DNA of 64,000 bases, from NCBI GenBank assembly GCA_030424665.1, contig JAUHWN010000003.1, positions 6,996 to 70,995 on the forward strand, written 5' to 3'. The position numbers were made by a program, and so were the translations under genes. This document shows, in pieces, positions 8,463 through 15,413 of this stretch. The stretch's first letter is position 1; each line of letters begins with the position of its first letter. The notes beneath the pieces are model-generated. The model was not told the DNA's origin and did not search any database. It saw only the letters and a program-made list of their open reading frames with translations. Source of the DNA: Bdellovibrionia bacterium. Lineage in GTDB: Bacteria; Bdellovibrionota; Bdellovibrionia; Bdellovibrionales; JAGQZY01.

Positions 8463-9305
8463 ATGAGTTATCAGAGTCCAAATTTATATGGCCAACACGG
8501 TTCCCACACAAAAGTTTTGAGTATTGCCTCAGGTAAAGGTGGGGTGGGGAAGACGACAATTACTTCAAATCTAGCACTCAGCCTAGCATCTCAGGGTCAC
8601 AGGGTTCTAATACTAGACGGTGATCTGGGCATGGCGAATGTAGACATAATGTTTGGAGTAAGGTCGCAGCACCACATTGGAGATATTCTTCAAGGGAGAG
8701 TGAGTGTCGAAGATGCGATTCAAAGAATCGACAAAAATATAGACCTATTGTCTGGTGGTAGTGGGCTCTACGAAATGTCAAAAATATCTACAGTAGAAAA
8801 AGCGCAACTTATAGAGCAGATAAGTGAGATTGGAACACACTATGACTATATGTTAGTCGATACGGCTCCTGGTATTAGTGACCAAGTCCTCTTCTTAAAT
8901 AGTGCTGCTCAACAAATATGTGTTGTTATTACCCCAGACCCCGCATCGATTGCTGACTCCTATGCACTAATGAAGGTGCTGAATCAGCATTATCGTGAAC
9001 AAAGATTTTCTATTATCTGCAATCAAGTATCAGATGTTGCACAAGGAAAGCGTTTGTTTTCCAAAATTAATGATATCTGTTCAAAGTTTCTGTACTTGAG
9101 TCTTGATTATTTGGGTTCAATCCCTCAAGATAAAGTTCTGAGGCAAACAACACAAACACAAAAGCTTGTAGTTAGATCCCATCCAGACGCTATCTCGACT
9201 GTCTCAATACGAGAAATTGCAAATGAATTAAGTGGTTACAATCAAATAGACAGCTGTAAAGGAAGTCTACAATTTTTCTGGCGCCAGCTCTTAGGTGTGG
9301 CATGA
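8463..9305 (+). CDS. flhG: MinD/ParA-type ATPase FlhG (FleN/YlxH), flagellar number regulator
   Basis: 280 aa. It has the deviant Walker A motif SGKGGVGKTTITSNLA and sits between flhF and fliA. Confidence 0.85.
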   Translation: MSYQSPNLYGQHGSHTKVLSIASGKGGVGKTTITSNLALSLASQGHRVLILDGDLGMANVDIMFGVRSQHHIGDILQGRVSVEDAIQRIDKNIDLLSGGSGLYEMSKISTVEKAQLIEQISEIGTHYDYMLVDTAPGISDQVLFLNSAAQQICVVITPDPASIADSYALMKVLNQHYREQRFSIICNQVSDVAQGKRLFSKINDICSKFLYLSLDYLGSIPQDKVLRQTTQTQKLVVRSHPDAISTVSIREIANELSGYNQIDSCKGSLQFFWRQLLGVA

Positions 9306-9366
9306 AAAGATTTGGACTTTTGAGAACTCGTTCTGTTTGATACCTTTAAGTTATAAGGAAGGTAGA

Positions 9367-10146
9367 ATGTCCTCAAGCTTACTTAAAAAATATAAAGAAG
9401 AGCCTAGTAAGTTAACTCCTCAACAAAAAGATAAGTTGATTATGGAGTATGCGCCGCTCATTAAGTTTATCGCTCAGAAGATAGCCGTGAGACTACCTTC
9501 AAATATCGAGCTCGATGACCTTATTTCAAGTGGAGTAATAGGCCTAATGGATGCCATCGAGAAATACGATCCGACACGCGATAATAAGTTTAAGACTTAC
9601 GCAGAATTTCGTATTCGTGGTTCGATTCTCGATGAACTCAGAGCTCAAGATTGGGTACCCCGTTCGGTTCGAGATAAAGCAAAGCTCTTAGATCGAACAA
9701 TTGGGGAGCTAGAGACTGAACTTGGACGTTCGCCTGAGGACGAAGAAGTGGCTGCGAAACTTAGTATGACCATGGACGAGTTCTACGATCTCGTTAATCA
9801 GGTTCGGCCGGTGAGTGTCCTCTCAATAGATGAGCAGGCTACTTTTAGTAATGTCGATAAGAAGTCTATTTTAAGCATCCTAGAGGGTGCTAAATTAAAT
9901 AATCCATTTAATCAGTTGAACTCTAAGTCAGTAAAAGAAGTCGTCACTCGAGCCATCGAGGAGCTTCCTGAGAGACAAAGACTGGTTCTTTCTCTTTACT
10001 ACTATGAGGACTTAAACTTGAAAGAAATCGGTAAGGTCCTTCGCGTGACAGAAAGTCGAGTTTCTCAACTTCACGCTCAAGCTGTTGCAAGACTTAGAGC
10101 TAAGTTGCAGATCGTTTTCGGCGAACAAGAAATGGAAGCTTCTTAA
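9367..10146 (+). CDS. fliA: Flagellar sigma factor FliA (sigma-28)
   Basis: The ATG at 9367 follows AAGGAAGG. The track's ORF starts at 9295. Sigma-70 regions 2, 3 and 4 are present (DLISSGVIGLMDAIEKYDP..., LNLKEIGKVLRVTESRVSQLHAQAV). It is the last gene of the flagellar operon. Confidence 0.9.
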   Translation: MSSSLLKKYKEEPSKLTPQQKDKLIMEYAPLIKFIAQKIAVRLPSNIELDDLISSGVIGLMDAIEKYDPTRDNKFKTYAEFRIRGSILDELRAQDWVPRSVRDKAKLLDRTIGELETELGRSPEDEEVAAKLSMTMDEFYDLVNQVRPVSVLSIDEQATFSNVDKKSILSILEGAKLNNPFNQLNSKSVKEVVTRAIEELPERQRLVLSLYYYEDLNLKEIGKVLRVTESRVSQLHAQAVARLRAKLQIVFGEQEMEAS

Positions 10147-10265: not shown

Positions 10266-11528
10266 ATGAAAATCTTGATTACATCTTATGGCACCCGTGG
10301 TGATGTGCAGCCTTATGTTGCCTTGGGGCTGGGATTGGTAGCCCGAGGGCATCAAGTATTGATTGTGACCAGTTCCCGTTTTGAAGAGTTTGTGCGGGGC
10401 CGTGGTCTTGATTTCTCACCTCTTTCGGATGAGTTATTGTCTATATTGGACCGACCTGAAGGAAAAGACCTTCTAGAGAAATCCAATAATTTGATTGGAA
10501 TGCTCAGCCAAGGAATCAAATTAAAAAAACAAGTTGGATATCTCAATGAAGAGCTTCTTCGTCAAAATTGGAAAATAGCAAAAGAGTTTTCTCCTGATTT
10601 AATAATATATCACCCCAAATCCTTTGGAGCACCTCATTGTGCTGAGAAATTAAAAGCTAAGGTTTTGTTTGCTACTCCGATTCCCATTTACATTCCTACT
10701 TCTGAATTTTCTTTTATAAACTTTCCGAGACTCGGTTTGGGTGGTTGGTACAATCGTTTGAGTTTTGGTTTCGTAAAAAAACTAACAGAAGTAGTAACGA
10801 AGCCCTATATCAACAAATTTAGAGATGAAATTGGACTCAAAATAGTAAGCAAGATTGATGTGACTCAGCTTCCACAAGGAGGTGAAATTCCAGTGATTCA
10901 TCTTCACAGTGAGTCTGTGCTTCCGAAGCCGAAGGATTGGCCGAAAACAGCCCATGTCACTGGCTATTGTTTTTTAGATGAAGAAGAAAGCTGGGAACCG
11001 CCTTCGGAATTGACCGATTTTCTTGGTAAAGGGGCTCCTCCTATTTACATTGGTTTCGGTTCGATGACAGGGCGAAACCCAGAAAGTCTAGCCCATATAA
11101 TTGTCGAGGCTTTAAAGAAAACAAATCAAAGGGGAATCATTGCCTCAGGATGGGGAGGGTTAGCTCCAAAGGATTTACCAGAAACTATTTTTTCTATAGA
11201 TCAAGTTCCCCATCATTGGTTGTTTTCTAGAGTTTCAGCAGTCATTCACCATGGAGGAGCCGGATCAACTGCCGCGGGATTGAGAGCTGGACGACCAACC
11301 CTCATCATTCCCTTTTTTGGTGATCAACCTTTTTGGGGCCAAAGAATTTTTGAAATAGGTGTCGGCCCGAAGCCGATTCCACGAAAGAAGTTAACGGTCA
11401 AAAAGTTAAGTGACGCGATTGGGGAGCTTGTAAATACGCCTTCGATCGCTCAAAGGGCCCTTCAAGTGGGAGAGGCAATTCGCTCCGAAGACGGTGTCTC
11501 CAGAGCAATAGAGATAATTGAAAGTTGA
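10266..11528 (+). CDS. GT1-family UDP-glycosyltransferase (MGT / sterol-glucosyltransferase-like)
   Basis: 420 aa. The N-terminal block MKILITSYGTRGDVQPYVALGLGLVARGH and the C-terminal donor-binding block HHGGAGSTAAGLRAGRPTLIIPFFGDQPFWG are hallmarks of this GT-B family. Confidence 0.8.
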   Translation: MKILITSYGTRGDVQPYVALGLGLVARGHQVLIVTSSRFEEFVRGRGLDFSPLSDELLSILDRPEGKDLLEKSNNLIGMLSQGIKLKKQVGYLNEELLRQNWKIAKEFSPDLIIYHPKSFGAPHCAEKLKAKVLFATPIPIYIPTSEFSFINFPRLGLGGWYNRLSFGFVKKLTEVVTKPYINKFRDEIGLKIVSKIDVTQLPQGGEIPVIHLHSESVLPKPKDWPKTAHVTGYCFLDEEESWEPPSELTDFLGKGAPPIYIGFGSMTGRNPESLAHIIVEALKKTNQRGIIASGWGGLAPKDLPETIFSIDQVPHHWLFSRVSAVIHHGGAGSTAAGLRAGRPTLIIPFFGDQPFWGQRIFEIGVGPKPIPRKKLTVKKLSDAIGELVNTPSIAQRALQVGEAIRSEDGVSRAIEIIES

Positions 11529-11633
11529 GTTCTCCATAAAACCAAGTGAACAAAATCTAGAGACTCTCTATCGGTTCGATATTCATTTGGAATAGGAGCA
11601 AACCTTTTATTGAAATTACGATTCAAATGAAGT

Positions 11634-13127
11634 TTACCCACGAACTGAAAGAACTTTATCTTTGATTTTCTTAATCACTCGGGCTTCCATTTGCCGAACT
11701 GCCTCGCGGGTGACTCCCCACTCTTCGCCGATCTCTTGCAGTTTTTTGGGGTCTTCAGAGAGAATACGTTCTTCGAGAATATAGTTTTCTTTTTCGTTAA
11801 GAGTTGGCTTCAGCTCTTCAACCATATTGTTGAGGGTAGCGATTTCCTCAAAGTGCCCAAGAAGTTCATCGGGGCTCACATCATCAGAGCTTTCAAAATC
11901 AAGAAGACGCGTACTTCCGCTAGCATCGACTGGAGCATCAAGACTAATATCTCGACCTTGCATGCGCTTTTCCATAAGTTTGACGTCATCATCACCGACA
12001 CCAAGGCGCGCACTGAGCAATTTGACGGTAGGCTCAAGGCCCTCTTGCTCAATTTTCTTTTTTTCTTTCTCAAGGCGATAGAAAAGTTTTCTTTGATTGG
12101 CCGTCGTTCCGATTTTTACCATTGAGTACTGCTTCATAAGATACTCTTGAATGTATCCGCGAATCCACCAAACGGCATAGGTAATAAGGCGCACACCTTT
12201 ATAGGGGTTAAACTCTTTAACTGCATGCATGAGGCCGACGTTGCCCTCTTGAATGAGATCAATGAGCTTTGCCCCAAACTTTGCGTATTCGGATGCCACT
12301 TTGACCACAAAACGCAAATTGGACGTCACCAAAATCTCTGCATCTTTAGGATCACCCTTTTCTTTATAGCGTTTGGCTATTATTTGCTCTTGTTCTTTGG
12401 TCAGGAGTGGGTACTTGCGAATTTCAGCGAGATACATCCCAAGCCCATCGGTAACGCTGGTTGGGAGGTGAGAGTATTCTTCTTCGGTTTCTTCTTTTGT
12501 CGGTTCCGGGATTTTGTCGACGACTTCGGCCTTGAGGGCCTTTTCACCAGAGTGTTTTTTTAGGTCAGAAGTGGTGTTGTCGACTCCTCGAGAATGAACT
12601 TCAATGGAGTCATGGTCCTTTGGCTTGTCTTTTTGTTGGCTAACTCGTTCTTTTTGCGAAGAGCCTTCGCTTTCCCAAGAGTCATCGTCAAGAATTTCGA
12701 CTTCGACCTTTTTGGCTTCACTCGCCGATGGCACTTCCGAAGAACTATTTGAGCGGATCTTTTTTCTTGAAACCTTCTTTGCTGAGGCTTTTCTTGAGAT
12801 TTTAGTGGCAGTTTTTTTCTTCGCAGTGGCCTTTTTCTTAGAAGGAGCTGATTTCTTTTTGCTAACTTTCTTTGCGGAAGCCTTCTTTGTGACTGTTTTT
12901 TTCTTCGTCATCGACTTTTTTGCGGATTTCTTTTTTTTGGTTTTTTTTGATGTCGACTTTTTCTTTACTGATTTCTTAGCGGATTTCTTCGCCGTAGATT
13001 TCTTCTTCTTTGTCGAAGACTTTTTAGCGGCCGCCTTTTTAGAGGACGATTTCTTTTTTATGGCCGTTTTTTTCTTTTTGCTCGAAGATTTTTTCGCCGA
13101 GACCTTTTTCTTTTTTGCTGCGGCCAT
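11634..13127 (-). CDS. RpoH-family (sigma-32-like) RNA polymerase sigma factor with a lysine-rich N-terminal extension
   Basis: 497 aa. The C-terminal ~275 aa carry sigma-70 regions 2-4 (DLIQEGNVGLMHAVKEFNPYKGVRLITYAVWWIRGYI; LQEIGEEWGVTREAVRQMEARVIKKI) and the RpoH-box-like QRKLFYRLEKEKK. The first ~125 aa are K/A/S/T repeats (AKKSSSKKKKTAIKKKSSSKKAAAKK...). Confidence 0.85.
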   Translation of the reverse strand: MAAAKKKKVSAKKSSSKKKKTAIKKKSSSKKAAAKKSSTKKKKSTAKKSAKKSVKKKSTSKKTKKKKSAKKSMTKKKTVTKKASAKKVSKKKSAPSKKKATAKKKTATKISRKASAKKVSRKKIRSNSSSEVPSASEAKKVEVEILDDDSWESEGSSQKERVSQQKDKPKDHDSIEVHSRGVDNTTSDLKKHSGEKALKAEVVDKIPEPTKEETEEEYSHLPTSVTDGLGMYLAEIRKYPLLTKEQEQIIAKRYKEKGDPKDAEILVTSNLRFVVKVASEYAKFGAKLIDLIQEGNVGLMHAVKEFNPYKGVRLITYAVWWIRGYIQEYLMKQYSMVKIGTTANQRKLFYRLEKEKKKIEQEGLEPTVKLLSARLGVGDDDVKLMEKRMQGRDISLDAPVDASGSTRLLDFESSDDVSPDELLGHFEEIATLNNMVEELKPTLNEKENYILEERILSEDPKKLQEIGEEWGVTREAVRQMEARVIKKIKDKVLSVRG

Positions 13128-13135
13128 AGGATTTC

Positions 13136-13441
13136 CTAAGCTAGAGCATTATCGAGTTTTTCTTTGAGGCTCGATTGAATTTTCCCTTTAAAGGGAGAGA
13201 GCATGAAGGGCAAATCAACCACGATTTCAACACTGGAACCATCGCCATCACCACTGACTCTCAACTGGGCAGAAAACTGTTTTCCCTTGGCCTGACCAGA
13301 ATGATTGGATTCGTTAAAATCAACCTTGTAGGACGGATCCAACTTTTTAAGGTCCGGGTCGTTAGAAATAAAGTCCTTAACCACCTCAAAGGCTTCGGCT
13401 TGGGTCTTAGCAGATTTGGAATTAACTGTTACTTTTGGCAT
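13136..13441 (-). CDS. Small conserved protein, resembles the putative polyhydroxyalkanoic-acid-system protein family (about 90-100 aa)
   Basis: Its layout resembles that family, with a C-terminal ...VEIVVDLPFMLSPFKGKIQSSLKEKLDNAL. The stop lies 8 nt before the sigma gene start, so the two are probably cotranscribed. The start could be 13441 (MPKVTV) or 13477. Family assignment is from memory only. Confidence 0.45.
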   Translation of the reverse strand: MPKVTVNSKSAKTQAEAFEVVKDFISNDPDLKKLDPSYKVDFNESNHSGQAKGKQFSAQLRVSGDGDGSSVEIVVDLPFMLSPFKGKIQSSLKEKLDNALA

Positions 13442-13597
13442 AGATACGAAATTATCGAGAAATTGCCCTTCTGTCATCAGAATATATATCGATCTGTGTC
13501 GAATTTCTCGCTGAGAGGCTTTGCCAAGCTGTGTTGTATCAGGTATTTAAGACTTTGGTTTTTAGCGTCCCGCCCAGGACCCAATAAGGAGAAATTA

Positions 13598-15413
13598 ATG
13601 AGTTTTATGAAGGAATGGAAGAGATCCAGCTACTGTGGAAGAGTTTCAACGGAGCAAGTTGGTGAAACCATTAATCTTATGGGCTGGGTCGATAATCGGA
13701 GGGACCATGGAGGCCTGGTGTTCGTCGATCTCAGAGATCGGGAGGGTACCGTACAAGTTGTTCTGGACCCGAACCAAGGTGCCATGAAAATTGCCAAAGA
13801 TTTCAAGCACGAAACCGTCGTTGCCATCCGCGGAGAGGTCAAAGCTCGCCCTGAGGGGATGATTAACAAAAAGATCCCTACGGGGGCCGTTGAGGTTTTG
13901 GCAGAGACCTGTGAGATTCTCTCTCAAGCGGAAACTCCACCCTTTCAGATCCATTCGACAAATGTATCTGAGGTGCTTAGACTTCAATACCGCTATCTCG
14001 ATTTTCGCACACCGAAACTCACCAACTACATTAAAACGCGCCACCTTCTCATGCAGAAGGTGCGACAATATCTGACCGAGAATGATTTTTTTGAAGTGGA
14101 AACTCCTATTCTCTATAAGAGCACTCCCGAGGGGGCGCGTGACTACTTGGTTCCTTCTCGAGTCCATCAAGGACATTTCTTTGCCCTTCCCCAATCGCCG
14201 CAAACATTGAAGCAGCTTTTAATGATTGGTGGGATGGATCGTTACTTTCAAATTGCTCGCTGTTTTCGCGACGAAGATTTGCGCGCAGACCGTCAGCCAG
14301 AATTCACTCAAATCGATATTGAGATGAGCTTTGTCGAAGCCGAAGACATTATGAGTATGACCGAAGAAATGTTGCAAAAAATATGGAAAGAGTTGAAGGG
14401 TGTAGAGGTGACGGAGATTCCTCGCATGACCTATCACCAAGCCATGGATCGTTATGGTTCTGATAAACCAGATATTCGCTTTGGTTTAGAAATAACGGAT
14501 TTAAAAGATGTAGCCGGAAGTATGGGCTTTCGCGTCTTTGACGATTGTCTATCGTCTGGCGGAATCGTTCGCGGAATTGCTCTCGCGCGGTAAGCTCGAT
14601 AAGCTGACAAGTATGGCTAAAAAAGCGGGAGCCAAGGGACTCGTTTGGATCAAGGTTGACGAGTCCGGCGCTTTGACTTCTCCAATCCTAAAAGCTCTCG
14701 GCGAAGAAAAATGCCAGAAATTATTCTCTGCTCTAACAAATGCTAAGAAAGGTCTCGCACTCCTGGTCGCTGATACCTACGACACCGCAAGTAGTGTACT
14801 CAGTAGTCTACGTCTTCATCTGGGTAGAGAGTTTGAACTCATTGATACGTCGAAAGATGCCTTCTGCTGGGTGACTGACTTTCCACTTCTCGAGTATGCC
14901 CCCGAAGAAAAGCGTTGGGTTGCAAGACACCACCCATTCACGATGGTTAAAGATGAATTTGTCGACAACCTTCTCGGTGATAAGCAAAATCAATCTCCGG
15001 ATACTTATTTGGCCAAAGCCTATGATCTTGTTTGCAACGGTTATGAGTTGGCTGGTGGAAGTGTTCGTATTCATAAGAACGAAGTTCAGCAAGAGATGTT
15101 TAACCTTCTTGGCATGAGTAAAGAAGAAGCCGAAGCTAAGTTTGGATTTTTCTTGGAGGCCTTGAAATACGGAACACCTCCTCACGGTGGAATCGCCTGG
15201 GGAATGGATCGACTTTCAATGATTCTTTGTGGAACTGACGCCATTCGCGATGTGATTGCCTTTCCAAAAACAACTAAGGCAACAGATCTTATGGCAAAAG
15301 CACCTTCGCGTGTTGAGCAGCAACAACTTTTGGAGTTAGGAATTCGCCTCGCGCCATCGGTTGAGAAGAAACTCGCAGAAGGCGAATCCACCCCCGTCGA
15401 TAACGAACTTTAG
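13598..15413 (+). pseudogene. aspS: Aspartate--tRNA ligase (AspRS), reading frame interrupted near 14576-14593
   Basis: The ATG at 13598 follows AAGGAG. The N-terminal part (13598-14593) has the OB-fold and class II motif regions (GWVDNRRDHGGLVFVDLRDREG; FFALPQSPQTLKQLLM; FRDEDLRADRQPEFTQID). It ends at a TAA right after GGIVRGIALAR. The rest continues in the +1 frame (14538-15413: LSRGKLDKLTSMAKKAGAKGLVWIKV...GGSVRIH...PPHGGIAWGMDRL). This may be a sequencing error. Confidence 0.8.

Follow-up and report, generated by a model that had tools for sequence, protein, structure and literature searches.

RpoH-type sigma factors are known from textbooks as compact alternative sigma factors of about 285 amino acids (aa), which are tightly regulated and carry no N-terminal domain. 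Escherichia coli sigma-32 is controlled chiefly via DnaK/J and FtsH, and proteases of this kind need unstructured initiation sites. Lysine-rich tails that resemble histone H1 are found on CarD of some myxobacteria, on the chlamydial proteins Hc1 and Hc2 and on Pseudomonas AlgP. The subject of this study is an RpoH-type sigma factor gene that carries a long, first basic and then acidic N-terminal extension, together with the small gene directly upstream of it. Both lie in a stretch of 64,000 nucleotides (nt) from a Bdellovibrionia bacterium of the order Bdellovibrionales (GenBank assembly GCA_030424665.1, contig JAUHWN010000003.1, positions 6,996 to 70,995), which we refer to as the window, and they had been picked out in an earlier account made from the letters alone, here called the sequence-only reading. 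By comparison with its orthologues, the basic head of the window protein is the most lysine-rich case of an extension architecture that spans the whole order.

The window sigma factor has a described orthologue in Bd3314 of Bdellovibrio bacteriovorus, a 373-aa sigma-70 homologue. Lambert et al. 2012 (PMC3464611) report constitutive expression of its gene and could not delete it, having screened 287 isolates. The same authors noted its larger size and judged it to be without an RpoH box (PMC3464611), and bd3314 appears as attack-phase specific in the list of Karunker et al. 2013. No mention of the extension or of the upstream gene was found in the bd3314 papers, and literature searches returned no description of a lysine-rich sigma extension in Bdellovibrio. 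In mycobacteria, the N-terminus of the housekeeping factor sigma-A is predicted to be disordered, carries positive charge in its first half and negative charge in its second, and has been proposed to act as a gate on the entry of DNA to the cleft (Hubin et al. 2017, PMC5511352); this extension is variable in length and poorly conserved in sequence except for one short element (PMC5511352). In Streptomyces, an H1-like lysine-rich domain that binds and condenses DNA is fused to a DksA-like RNA-polymerase modulator in the protein DdbA (PMC3643593).

The sigma gene of the window is an open reading frame (ORF) of 497 aa plus stop at 11634-13127 on the minus strand, with the N-terminus MAAAKKKKVSAKK (MAAAKKKKVSAKKSSSKKKK). 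The identical protein is encoded in an independent Logan assembly of run ERR3428543, so the ORF is not an assembly artefact. Its residues 223-497 (11634-12461, minus strand) make up an RpoH-type core of region 1.2, sigma-2, RpoH box, a short region 3 and sigma-4. Pfam recognises region 1.2 at residues 227-256 (38.9 bits), region 2 at 266-333 (55.5 bits) and region 4 at 442-489 (35.6 bits), all above the cutoffs, and the protein passes the RpoH subfamily model NF005143 with 272.6 bits against a cutoff of 241. It stays below the cutoffs of the two RpoH equivalog models (TIGR02392, 275.6 against 323.1; NF005693, 211.7 against 315); models of RpoS score about 110 bits under those of RpoH, which is the best match. 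The best relative of the core in the PDB is E. coli RpoH (8hkc_E, E=6.8e-48, query residues 226-490), and in an AlphaFold2 (AF2) model of the sigma protein, built with a 48-sequence alignment, the core is helical from residue 228 with a predicted local distance difference test (pLDDT) score of 80-98.

The RpoH box, which in this family reads Q(R/K)(K/R)LFFNLR and lies between regions 2.4 and 3.1, is present in a variant form, QRKLFYRLE, at residues 345-353 (12069-12095, minus strand). Aligned to E. coli RpoH, six of its nine residues are identical to those of the box QRKLFFNLR, and the change from F to Y is conservative; among 48 orthologues Q345, L348, Y350 and L352 never vary, and conservation of R346, K347 and F349 is at least 90%. 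The alignment thus shows a conserved box variant where Bd3314 had been judged to have none (PMC3464611). Synteny identifies the locus as the neighbourhood of bd3314 in B. bacteriovorus HD100, in which fliA is bd3318 (PMC3464611), and by sequence and by synteny with aspS and fliA the window gene is orthologous to bd3314. On the family and structure matches, taken with this synteny, the sigma factor is of RpoH type, in group 3.

In front of this core stand two segments of opposite charge. The polycationic head, residues 1-125 (12753-13127, minus strand), consists of 58 Lys, 23 Ser, 19 Ala, 11 Thr, 5 Val, 3 Ile, 3 Arg, 2 Met and 1 Pro, that is, of 46% Lys without a single Asp or Glu. Clusters of two to four lysines are separated by spacers of two to three small residues (S/A/T), and the net charge of about +60 to +61 makes it the most charged as well as the most lysine-rich head found. 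Across the remaining long ORFs of the window 6.2% of the residues are lysine, and a comparable tract is absent from all its other ORFs. The linker that follows, residues 126-222 (12462-12752, minus strand), is acidic and rich in serine (S16, E16, K12, D9), with a net charge of -11. A short motif conserved in the clade is found in two copies: VEVEILDDD at residues 141-149 (12681-12707, minus strand), at the junction of the basic and the acidic segment, and AEVVD at residues 200-204 (12516-12530, minus strand), inside the segment KALKAEVVDKIPEP, which recurs near-verbatim in the homologue P0014.

AF2 predicts the whole of residues 1-226 to be disordered, with pLDDT below 50 (35-45) and no secondary structure. 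Region 1.1 (Sigma70_r1_1) gave no Pfam match in these residues even at E<=10, nor does the model contain a helix before residue 228; residues 126-222 resemble region 1.1 of sigma-70 in nothing but their acidic character. The sequence-only reading had described an RpoH-family sigma factor with a box-like sequence in its last ~275 residues, a lysine-rich N-terminus of about 125 residues and an acidic, serine-rich linker between them, and all three elements of this description are borne out.

Because the coding strand is poor in T, an open frame alone is weak proof that the lysine tract is translated. It could be argued that translation begins at an internal start and that the frame upstream is a by-product of A-rich, T-poor sequence without stops: such a strand gives long frames by its composition, the opposite strand indeed has a poly-Phe ORF of 187 aa (12604-13167, plus strand), which is a mirror artefact of the AAA/AAG-rich strand and not a gene, and the Shine-Dalgarno (SD)-like sequence at M1 is only moderate (TAGGAA, 4/6, overlapping the upstream stop). 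The first 240 codons, however, offer only M1, M73, V132 (GTG) and M231 as in-frame starts, and M1 has the best SD-like sequence of these; M231 lies inside the conserved region 1.2, and a protein that began there would lack conserved residues, among them the invariant D227. Absence or frameshifting of the tract in a close relative is what the sequence-only reading had named as speaking against it, and in the Bdellovibrionia metagenome-assembled genome (MAG) 7_bin.39 (L002; about 93% DNA identity in the adjacent aspS) the tract of the 506-aa sigma protein is instead in frame despite one indel of 15 nt (5 codons).

More than 150 orthologues of 45-70% identity begin with MAK or MKK and a basic stretch. 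At this distance the protein sequences still agree in starting with MAK, in having a basic head and in the AEIV motif; the coupling of stop, SD sequence and start to the upstream gene is conserved as well. The longest run of A in the head is 8. When synonymous codons are assigned at random the longest run averages 11.3, and it stays at 8 or fewer in just some 3% of simulations, so that the interleaving of AAA and AAG is as expected if a translated message selects against slippery poly(A). On these grounds—the frame in L002, the codon arrangement, the starts and the N-termini of the orthologues—the tail is genuine coding sequence, and an untranslated tract seems to us extremely improbable.

How strongly the different parts of the protein are constrained can be judged from the codon differences between the window and L002. 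In the head (residues 1-125) 17 of them are non-synonymous and 11 synonymous, in the linker (126-222) 6 and 11, and in the core (223-497) 2 and 51. Of the 58 head lysines 55 are kept, the substitutions fall only in the S/A/T/V spacers, and the acidic residues amount to none in the window protein and two E in L002. By this comparison the constraint is graded along the protein, and in the head it is the charge that is kept rather than the sequence. A recent repeat expansion by slippage was also considered and is ruled out: Tandem Repeats Finder (TRF) gave just two trivial short arrays and no tandem repeat at the DNA level.

The extension is not confined to this pair. Among the best 120 database homologues almost all have 311-464 aa, with 48-192 residues before region 1.2, and in a species-level genome scan of 80 loci an extension of 27-236 aa was present in essentially all loci from Bdellovibrionales, Bdellovibrionaceae and Pseudobdellovibrionaceae, including those of complete genomes of B. 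bacteriovorus and Bdellovibrio sp.; the longest are those of the window protein and its close relative L002 (236 aa). The extension is lacking in the RpoH proteins of two outgroups, where region 1.2 is preceded by about 14 residues: that of L076, a Myxococcota MAG, has 288 aa and that of L077, a 'Deltaproteobacteria' MAG, has 289 aa. The statement of the sequence-only reading that canonical RpoH is without such an extension is thereby upheld, and the alignment with relatives that it had recommended finds the extension common to Bdellovibrionales and absent in the Myxococcota MAG outgroup; the extension is thus no peculiarity of the window gene and belongs to a head, motif and linker architecture shared across the order.

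The orthologues follow a common plan in which a basic head is succeeded by a (V)xAE(I/V)(I/V)(D/E) motif, an acidic or variable linker and region 1.2. The head has a median of 34 aa and a net charge of +9, and the segment past the motif a median net charge of -10. Among 171 unique extensions the pattern [AVPGE]E[IVL][IVL] occurs in 159, against a mean of 16 and a maximum of 27 in composition-preserving shuffles; the commonest forms are AEIV, AEVV and AELV, followed by D or E. Two other long extensions, with about 210 aa before region 1.2 in a 493-aa ORF of L014 (JAYVND010000807.1) and 192 aa in P0005, are built otherwise, with acidic and Ser/Thr/Gly-rich stretches behind a basic head that is short. 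They have become long independently, and therefore expansion in length recurs, with the polylysine form specific to the lineage of the window.

This diversity invites the alternative that the long lysine tract is a near-neutral, low-complexity expansion in which only the short basic N-terminus and the motif matter, the extra ~90 aa having no specific role. The hugely variable length of the head, with some orthologues having total extensions of 27-28 aa, would fit, as would the highest ratio of non-synonymous to synonymous differences in the protein and the indel between close relatives. Yet 55 of 58 lysines would hardly be kept under neutrality, with no acidic residue in 125 positions of the window protein and two E in that of L002; moreover the arrangement of codons avoids long runs of A and carries no signature of tandem-repeat slippage. 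We consider a neutral expansion distinctly unlikely.

The second part of the locus is the small gene upstream (longest ORF 113 aa, 13136-13477, minus strand; Pfam family PF09650). Its true product probably has 101 aa and begins at M13 (ATG at 13441), because 60+ orthologues begin there with MPK(V/F)x(V/I). At the gene junction (13128-13138, minus strand) the TAG stop at 13136-13138 overlaps the SD-like TAGGAA, and a gap of 8 nt separates it from the sigma ATG at 13127. In 66 of the 80 loci the small gene stands directly upstream of the sigma gene on the same strand, the gaps being mostly 1-20 nt and sometimes -4 or -8, and the stop often falls within TAGGAG or TAAGGA. A scan of 11400-13800 found no match to a terminator or promoter on the minus strand, and no terminator-like site between the two genes. 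From this spacing in the comparative data, co-transcription and translational coupling of the two genes are well supported. What the sequence-only reading had seen at this one junction, an upstream gene ending 8 nt before the sigma start, has thus become a conserved and tightly coupled partner, in line with its suggestion of a single transcript and a possible partner.

The small protein passes PF09650 (PHA_gran_rgn) with 29.0-29.5 bits against 26.6, as do 36 of 38 orthologues, and falls below the cutoff of TIGR02610 (18.2 against 40.25). Genes for polyhydroxyalkanoate (PHA) metabolism are absent near it; its neighbours in 60+ loci are aspS, the sigma gene and fliA. The label 'PHA-system-like', under which it had first been described, is therefore right as to the Pfam score and wrong as to TIGR02610 and the genomic context. 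The AF2 model of the small protein (pLDDT 91.4) has the order beta, two alpha, four beta, long alpha, and its PDB matches in Foldseek (TTHA0849, PR-10 and CoxG, with E from 2.7e-5 and TMq, the query TM-score, at 0.55-0.67) all have the Bet v 1/SRPBCC fold, the small protein being about 50 aa shorter than these matches. The model thus points to a short Bet v 1/SRPBCC-like predicted fold. At E<=1e-3 the subfamily comprises 210 representatives among 1.84 billion proteins.

The small gene is absent from the outgroups and from three Bdellovibrionales MAGs, L062, L066 and L068. The first two, with chromosomes of about 2.1-2.3 Mb, have extensions of 27-28 aa made of a run of K and an AEV(I)/VEIV-type motif, and in the third the N-terminus is about as short, is rich in K and contains a VEIV motif, which hints that the partner gene and the long extension were lost together.

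A general link of PF09650 to sigma factors or lysine-rich tails, for which Pseudomonas PhaF, a protein with an H1-like tail encoded near PHA genes, had served as a lead, was rejected after a metagenome scan. A sister subfamily (loci L082-L157; 92-95 aa) pairs there with another gene, overlapping it by 4 nt (e.g. L102 3926-4842); this partner encodes a plant-type 2Fe-2S ferredoxin-like protein of ~180 aa (SSCGGCATCSDC) with a long charged tail. The longer contigs of this subfamily also carry, on the same strand and ~3.2 kb upstream, an RpoH-like gene, after which come rpsO, pnp and dut. As the sister subfamily is coupled to the ferredoxin-like gene, the pairing with a sigma factor is specific to the Bdellovibrionales subfamily.

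What might the extension do? The explanation we favour, and to which we would give an even chance, is that it combines a polycationic tether to DNA or another polyanion with an acidic gate. Through its charge the head would bind polyanions, of which DNA, bound irrespective of its sequence, is the most plausible, and would hold the sigma factor, free or in the holoenzyme, on the nucleoid, where it could aid the search for promoters. The acidic linker would be an intramolecular counter-ion or gate, which pairs with the head or, as long as no promoter is engaged, covers the cleft of RNA polymerase and the surfaces that bind DNA; a comparable mode of action is assumed for region 1.1 of sigma-70 and for the N-terminal extension of mycobacterial sigma-A. 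Control might then be exerted at the conserved motif, for instance as a docking site, and by the SRPBCC-like protein, for instance as a partner that senses a ligand. We speculate further—a proposal that we rate as doubtful—that the extension and the coupled 101-aa protein form an unrecognised control module of an essential RpoH-type sigma factor: the small protein, possibly responsive to a hydrophobic ligand, would dock on AEIV(D/E) and switch the head between a nucleoid-bound and a linker-masked state, in place of or in addition to the control by DnaK, FtsH and RNA thermometers in Proteobacteria, and would do so in bacteria with histone-coated DNA.

The extension may on the other hand mainly set the level of the sigma factor, by offering FtsH, Lon, Clp or DnaK a degron, a disordered handle or a site for chaperone binding, with polyphosphate perhaps as a bridge to Lon and nucleic-acid binding as an incidental property. 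The handling of sigma-32 by DnaK/J and FtsH is a precedent for this, the extension is fully disordered and carries a short conserved linear motif of the kind typical of recognition sites, and it stands in the place of the short N-terminus of canonical RpoH. A handle, however, needs neither 58 lysines nor a stretch of 125 aa with zero acidic residues, conservation of charge over sequence fits electrostatic binding better, and the locus has no linked gene for a protease or a chaperone. A role in setting the sigma level seems unlikely to us, though it deserves to be kept in mind.

Several points weigh against a tether with an acidic gate. In the full-length AF2 model neither the motif nor the linker docks onto the sigma core. 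With PF07382 HC2, whose cutoff is 40 bits, the tail reaches only 17.5 (E=0.0046), and no linker-histone globular domain was found, so that the likeness to H1 and Hc2 is compositional only; the term 'histone-H1-like' of the first description holds for composition and fails for family membership. The head evolves fast and ranges from ~10 to ~140 aa among orthologues, and its large size in the lineage of the window may for that reason be dispensable for function. The small protein was considered as an acidic chaperone that neutralises the tail and rejected in this role, as it is itself mildly basic (median net charge +3) and its charge shows no correlation with that of the head (rho 0.11, p 0.37). 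Finally, no RNA data on the co-transcription of the two genes were found; the supplements of Karunker et al. hold only a quantitative PCR (qPCR) primer entry for bd3314/bd3315.

The wider locus is conserved in the order aspS (divergent), small gene, sigma gene and fliA (convergent), with aspS in 61 and fliA in 45 of the 80 loci. In the window, the FliA/WhiG sigma-28 gene lies at 9295-10146 on the plus strand, convergent to the RpoH-type gene, as in the bd3318/bd3314 neighbourhood. The divergent aspS (13590-15413, plus strand) is split into the overlapping ORFs 13175-14593 and 14538-15413 by a deletion of 20 nt at ~14582 relative to L002, whose aspS is one intact ORF; either the assembly is wrong here or an essential gene has been disrupted. 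Between the sigma gene and fliA the window genome alone has a GT28/UDPGT-type glycosyltransferase gene (EryCIII-like; 10266-11528, plus strand), which is absent at that position in L002 and the other 79 loci. The C-terminus of the sigma protein changes exactly at the junction with this gene (VLSVRG* against VLSNQGGTRV*), which suggests a recent insertion of the glycosyltransferase gene next to 11634.

What is already known, then, is the gene family with its essentiality and, in other phyla, charge-segregated N-termini of sigma factors and H1-like tails on transcription proteins. The basic-then-acidic architecture on an RpoH-type sigma factor, its order-wide conservation with a defined motif and the coupled SRPBCC-like partner appear to be undescribed. 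Thus, in a whole order of predatory bacteria an RpoH-type sigma factor has gained a disordered, charge-segregated N-terminus along with a dedicated small partner gene. The basic-then-acidic N-terminus of actinobacterial housekeeping sigma factors would thereby have been invented a second time, independently, which suggests a general physical solution for the control of encounters of sigma factors with DNA. The 125-aa polylysine extreme provides a natural 'dose series' for testing this idea. Bdellovibrionota package their DNA with histones (PMC11789641), and on histone-coated DNA a polycationic sigma tail could bear on the initiation of transcription. The hypothesis is directly testable in B. 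bacteriovorus, for which genetic tools exist and which has the orthologous pair, bd3314 and its upstream gene.

Measured against its known relatives, the window protein is closest in its core to E. coli sigma-32 (RpoH, 8hkc chain E), to which residues 226-490 align end to end. It differs in the box (QRKLFYRLE instead of QRKLFFNLR) and in the N-terminus, where about 14 residues of the E. coli protein stand against a disordered extension of 222 aa; the orthologue in B. bacteriovorus, moreover, is reported as undeletable and as constitutive or attack-phase, and not as purely stress-induced like E. coli RpoH. Bd3314 of HD100 shares the architecture: the B. bacteriovorus strains scanned have sigma proteins of 366-371 aa with a basic-then-acidic extension of ~100 aa and an upstream gene of 101 aa, but the head in the window is about four times longer and far richer in lysine. 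The small protein resembles the 'putative polyhydroxyalkanoic acid system protein' family of PF09650/TIGR02610 in its size (~90-100 aa) and its Pfam score, and differs from it in belonging to a clade-specific subfamily without PHA neighbours.

The H1-like tails of DdbA-type proteins are similar insofar as they, too, are low-complexity polycations rich in K, A, S and T on a protein that acts on RNA polymerase. None of DdbA, CarD, Hc1, Hc2 and AlgP is a sigma factor, however, and unlike H1-like tails the window tract has few prolines, no (S/T)PKK or KPAA repeats and an acidic linker behind it. A parallel in design is mycobacterial and actinobacterial sigma-A, which likewise has disorder before region 1.2 and segregated charges (about +61 and then -11 in the window, with medians of +9 and -10 in the orthologues). 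The Lys-rich actinobacterial sigma model NF004565 (NCBIfam) even aligns across the window tail, at residues 8-490, which underlines what looks like a compositional convergence with these sigma factors. Sigma-A is nevertheless a group 1 housekeeping factor, unlike the group 3 RpoH-type factor here, and there is no sequence homology between the extensions. In sigma-A a conserved helix that abuts region 1.2 contacts the actinobacteria-specific beta-prime i1 insert, whereas AF2 predicts no helix upstream of residue 228 in the window protein and the AEIV(D/E) motif lies at a variable distance from region 1.2.

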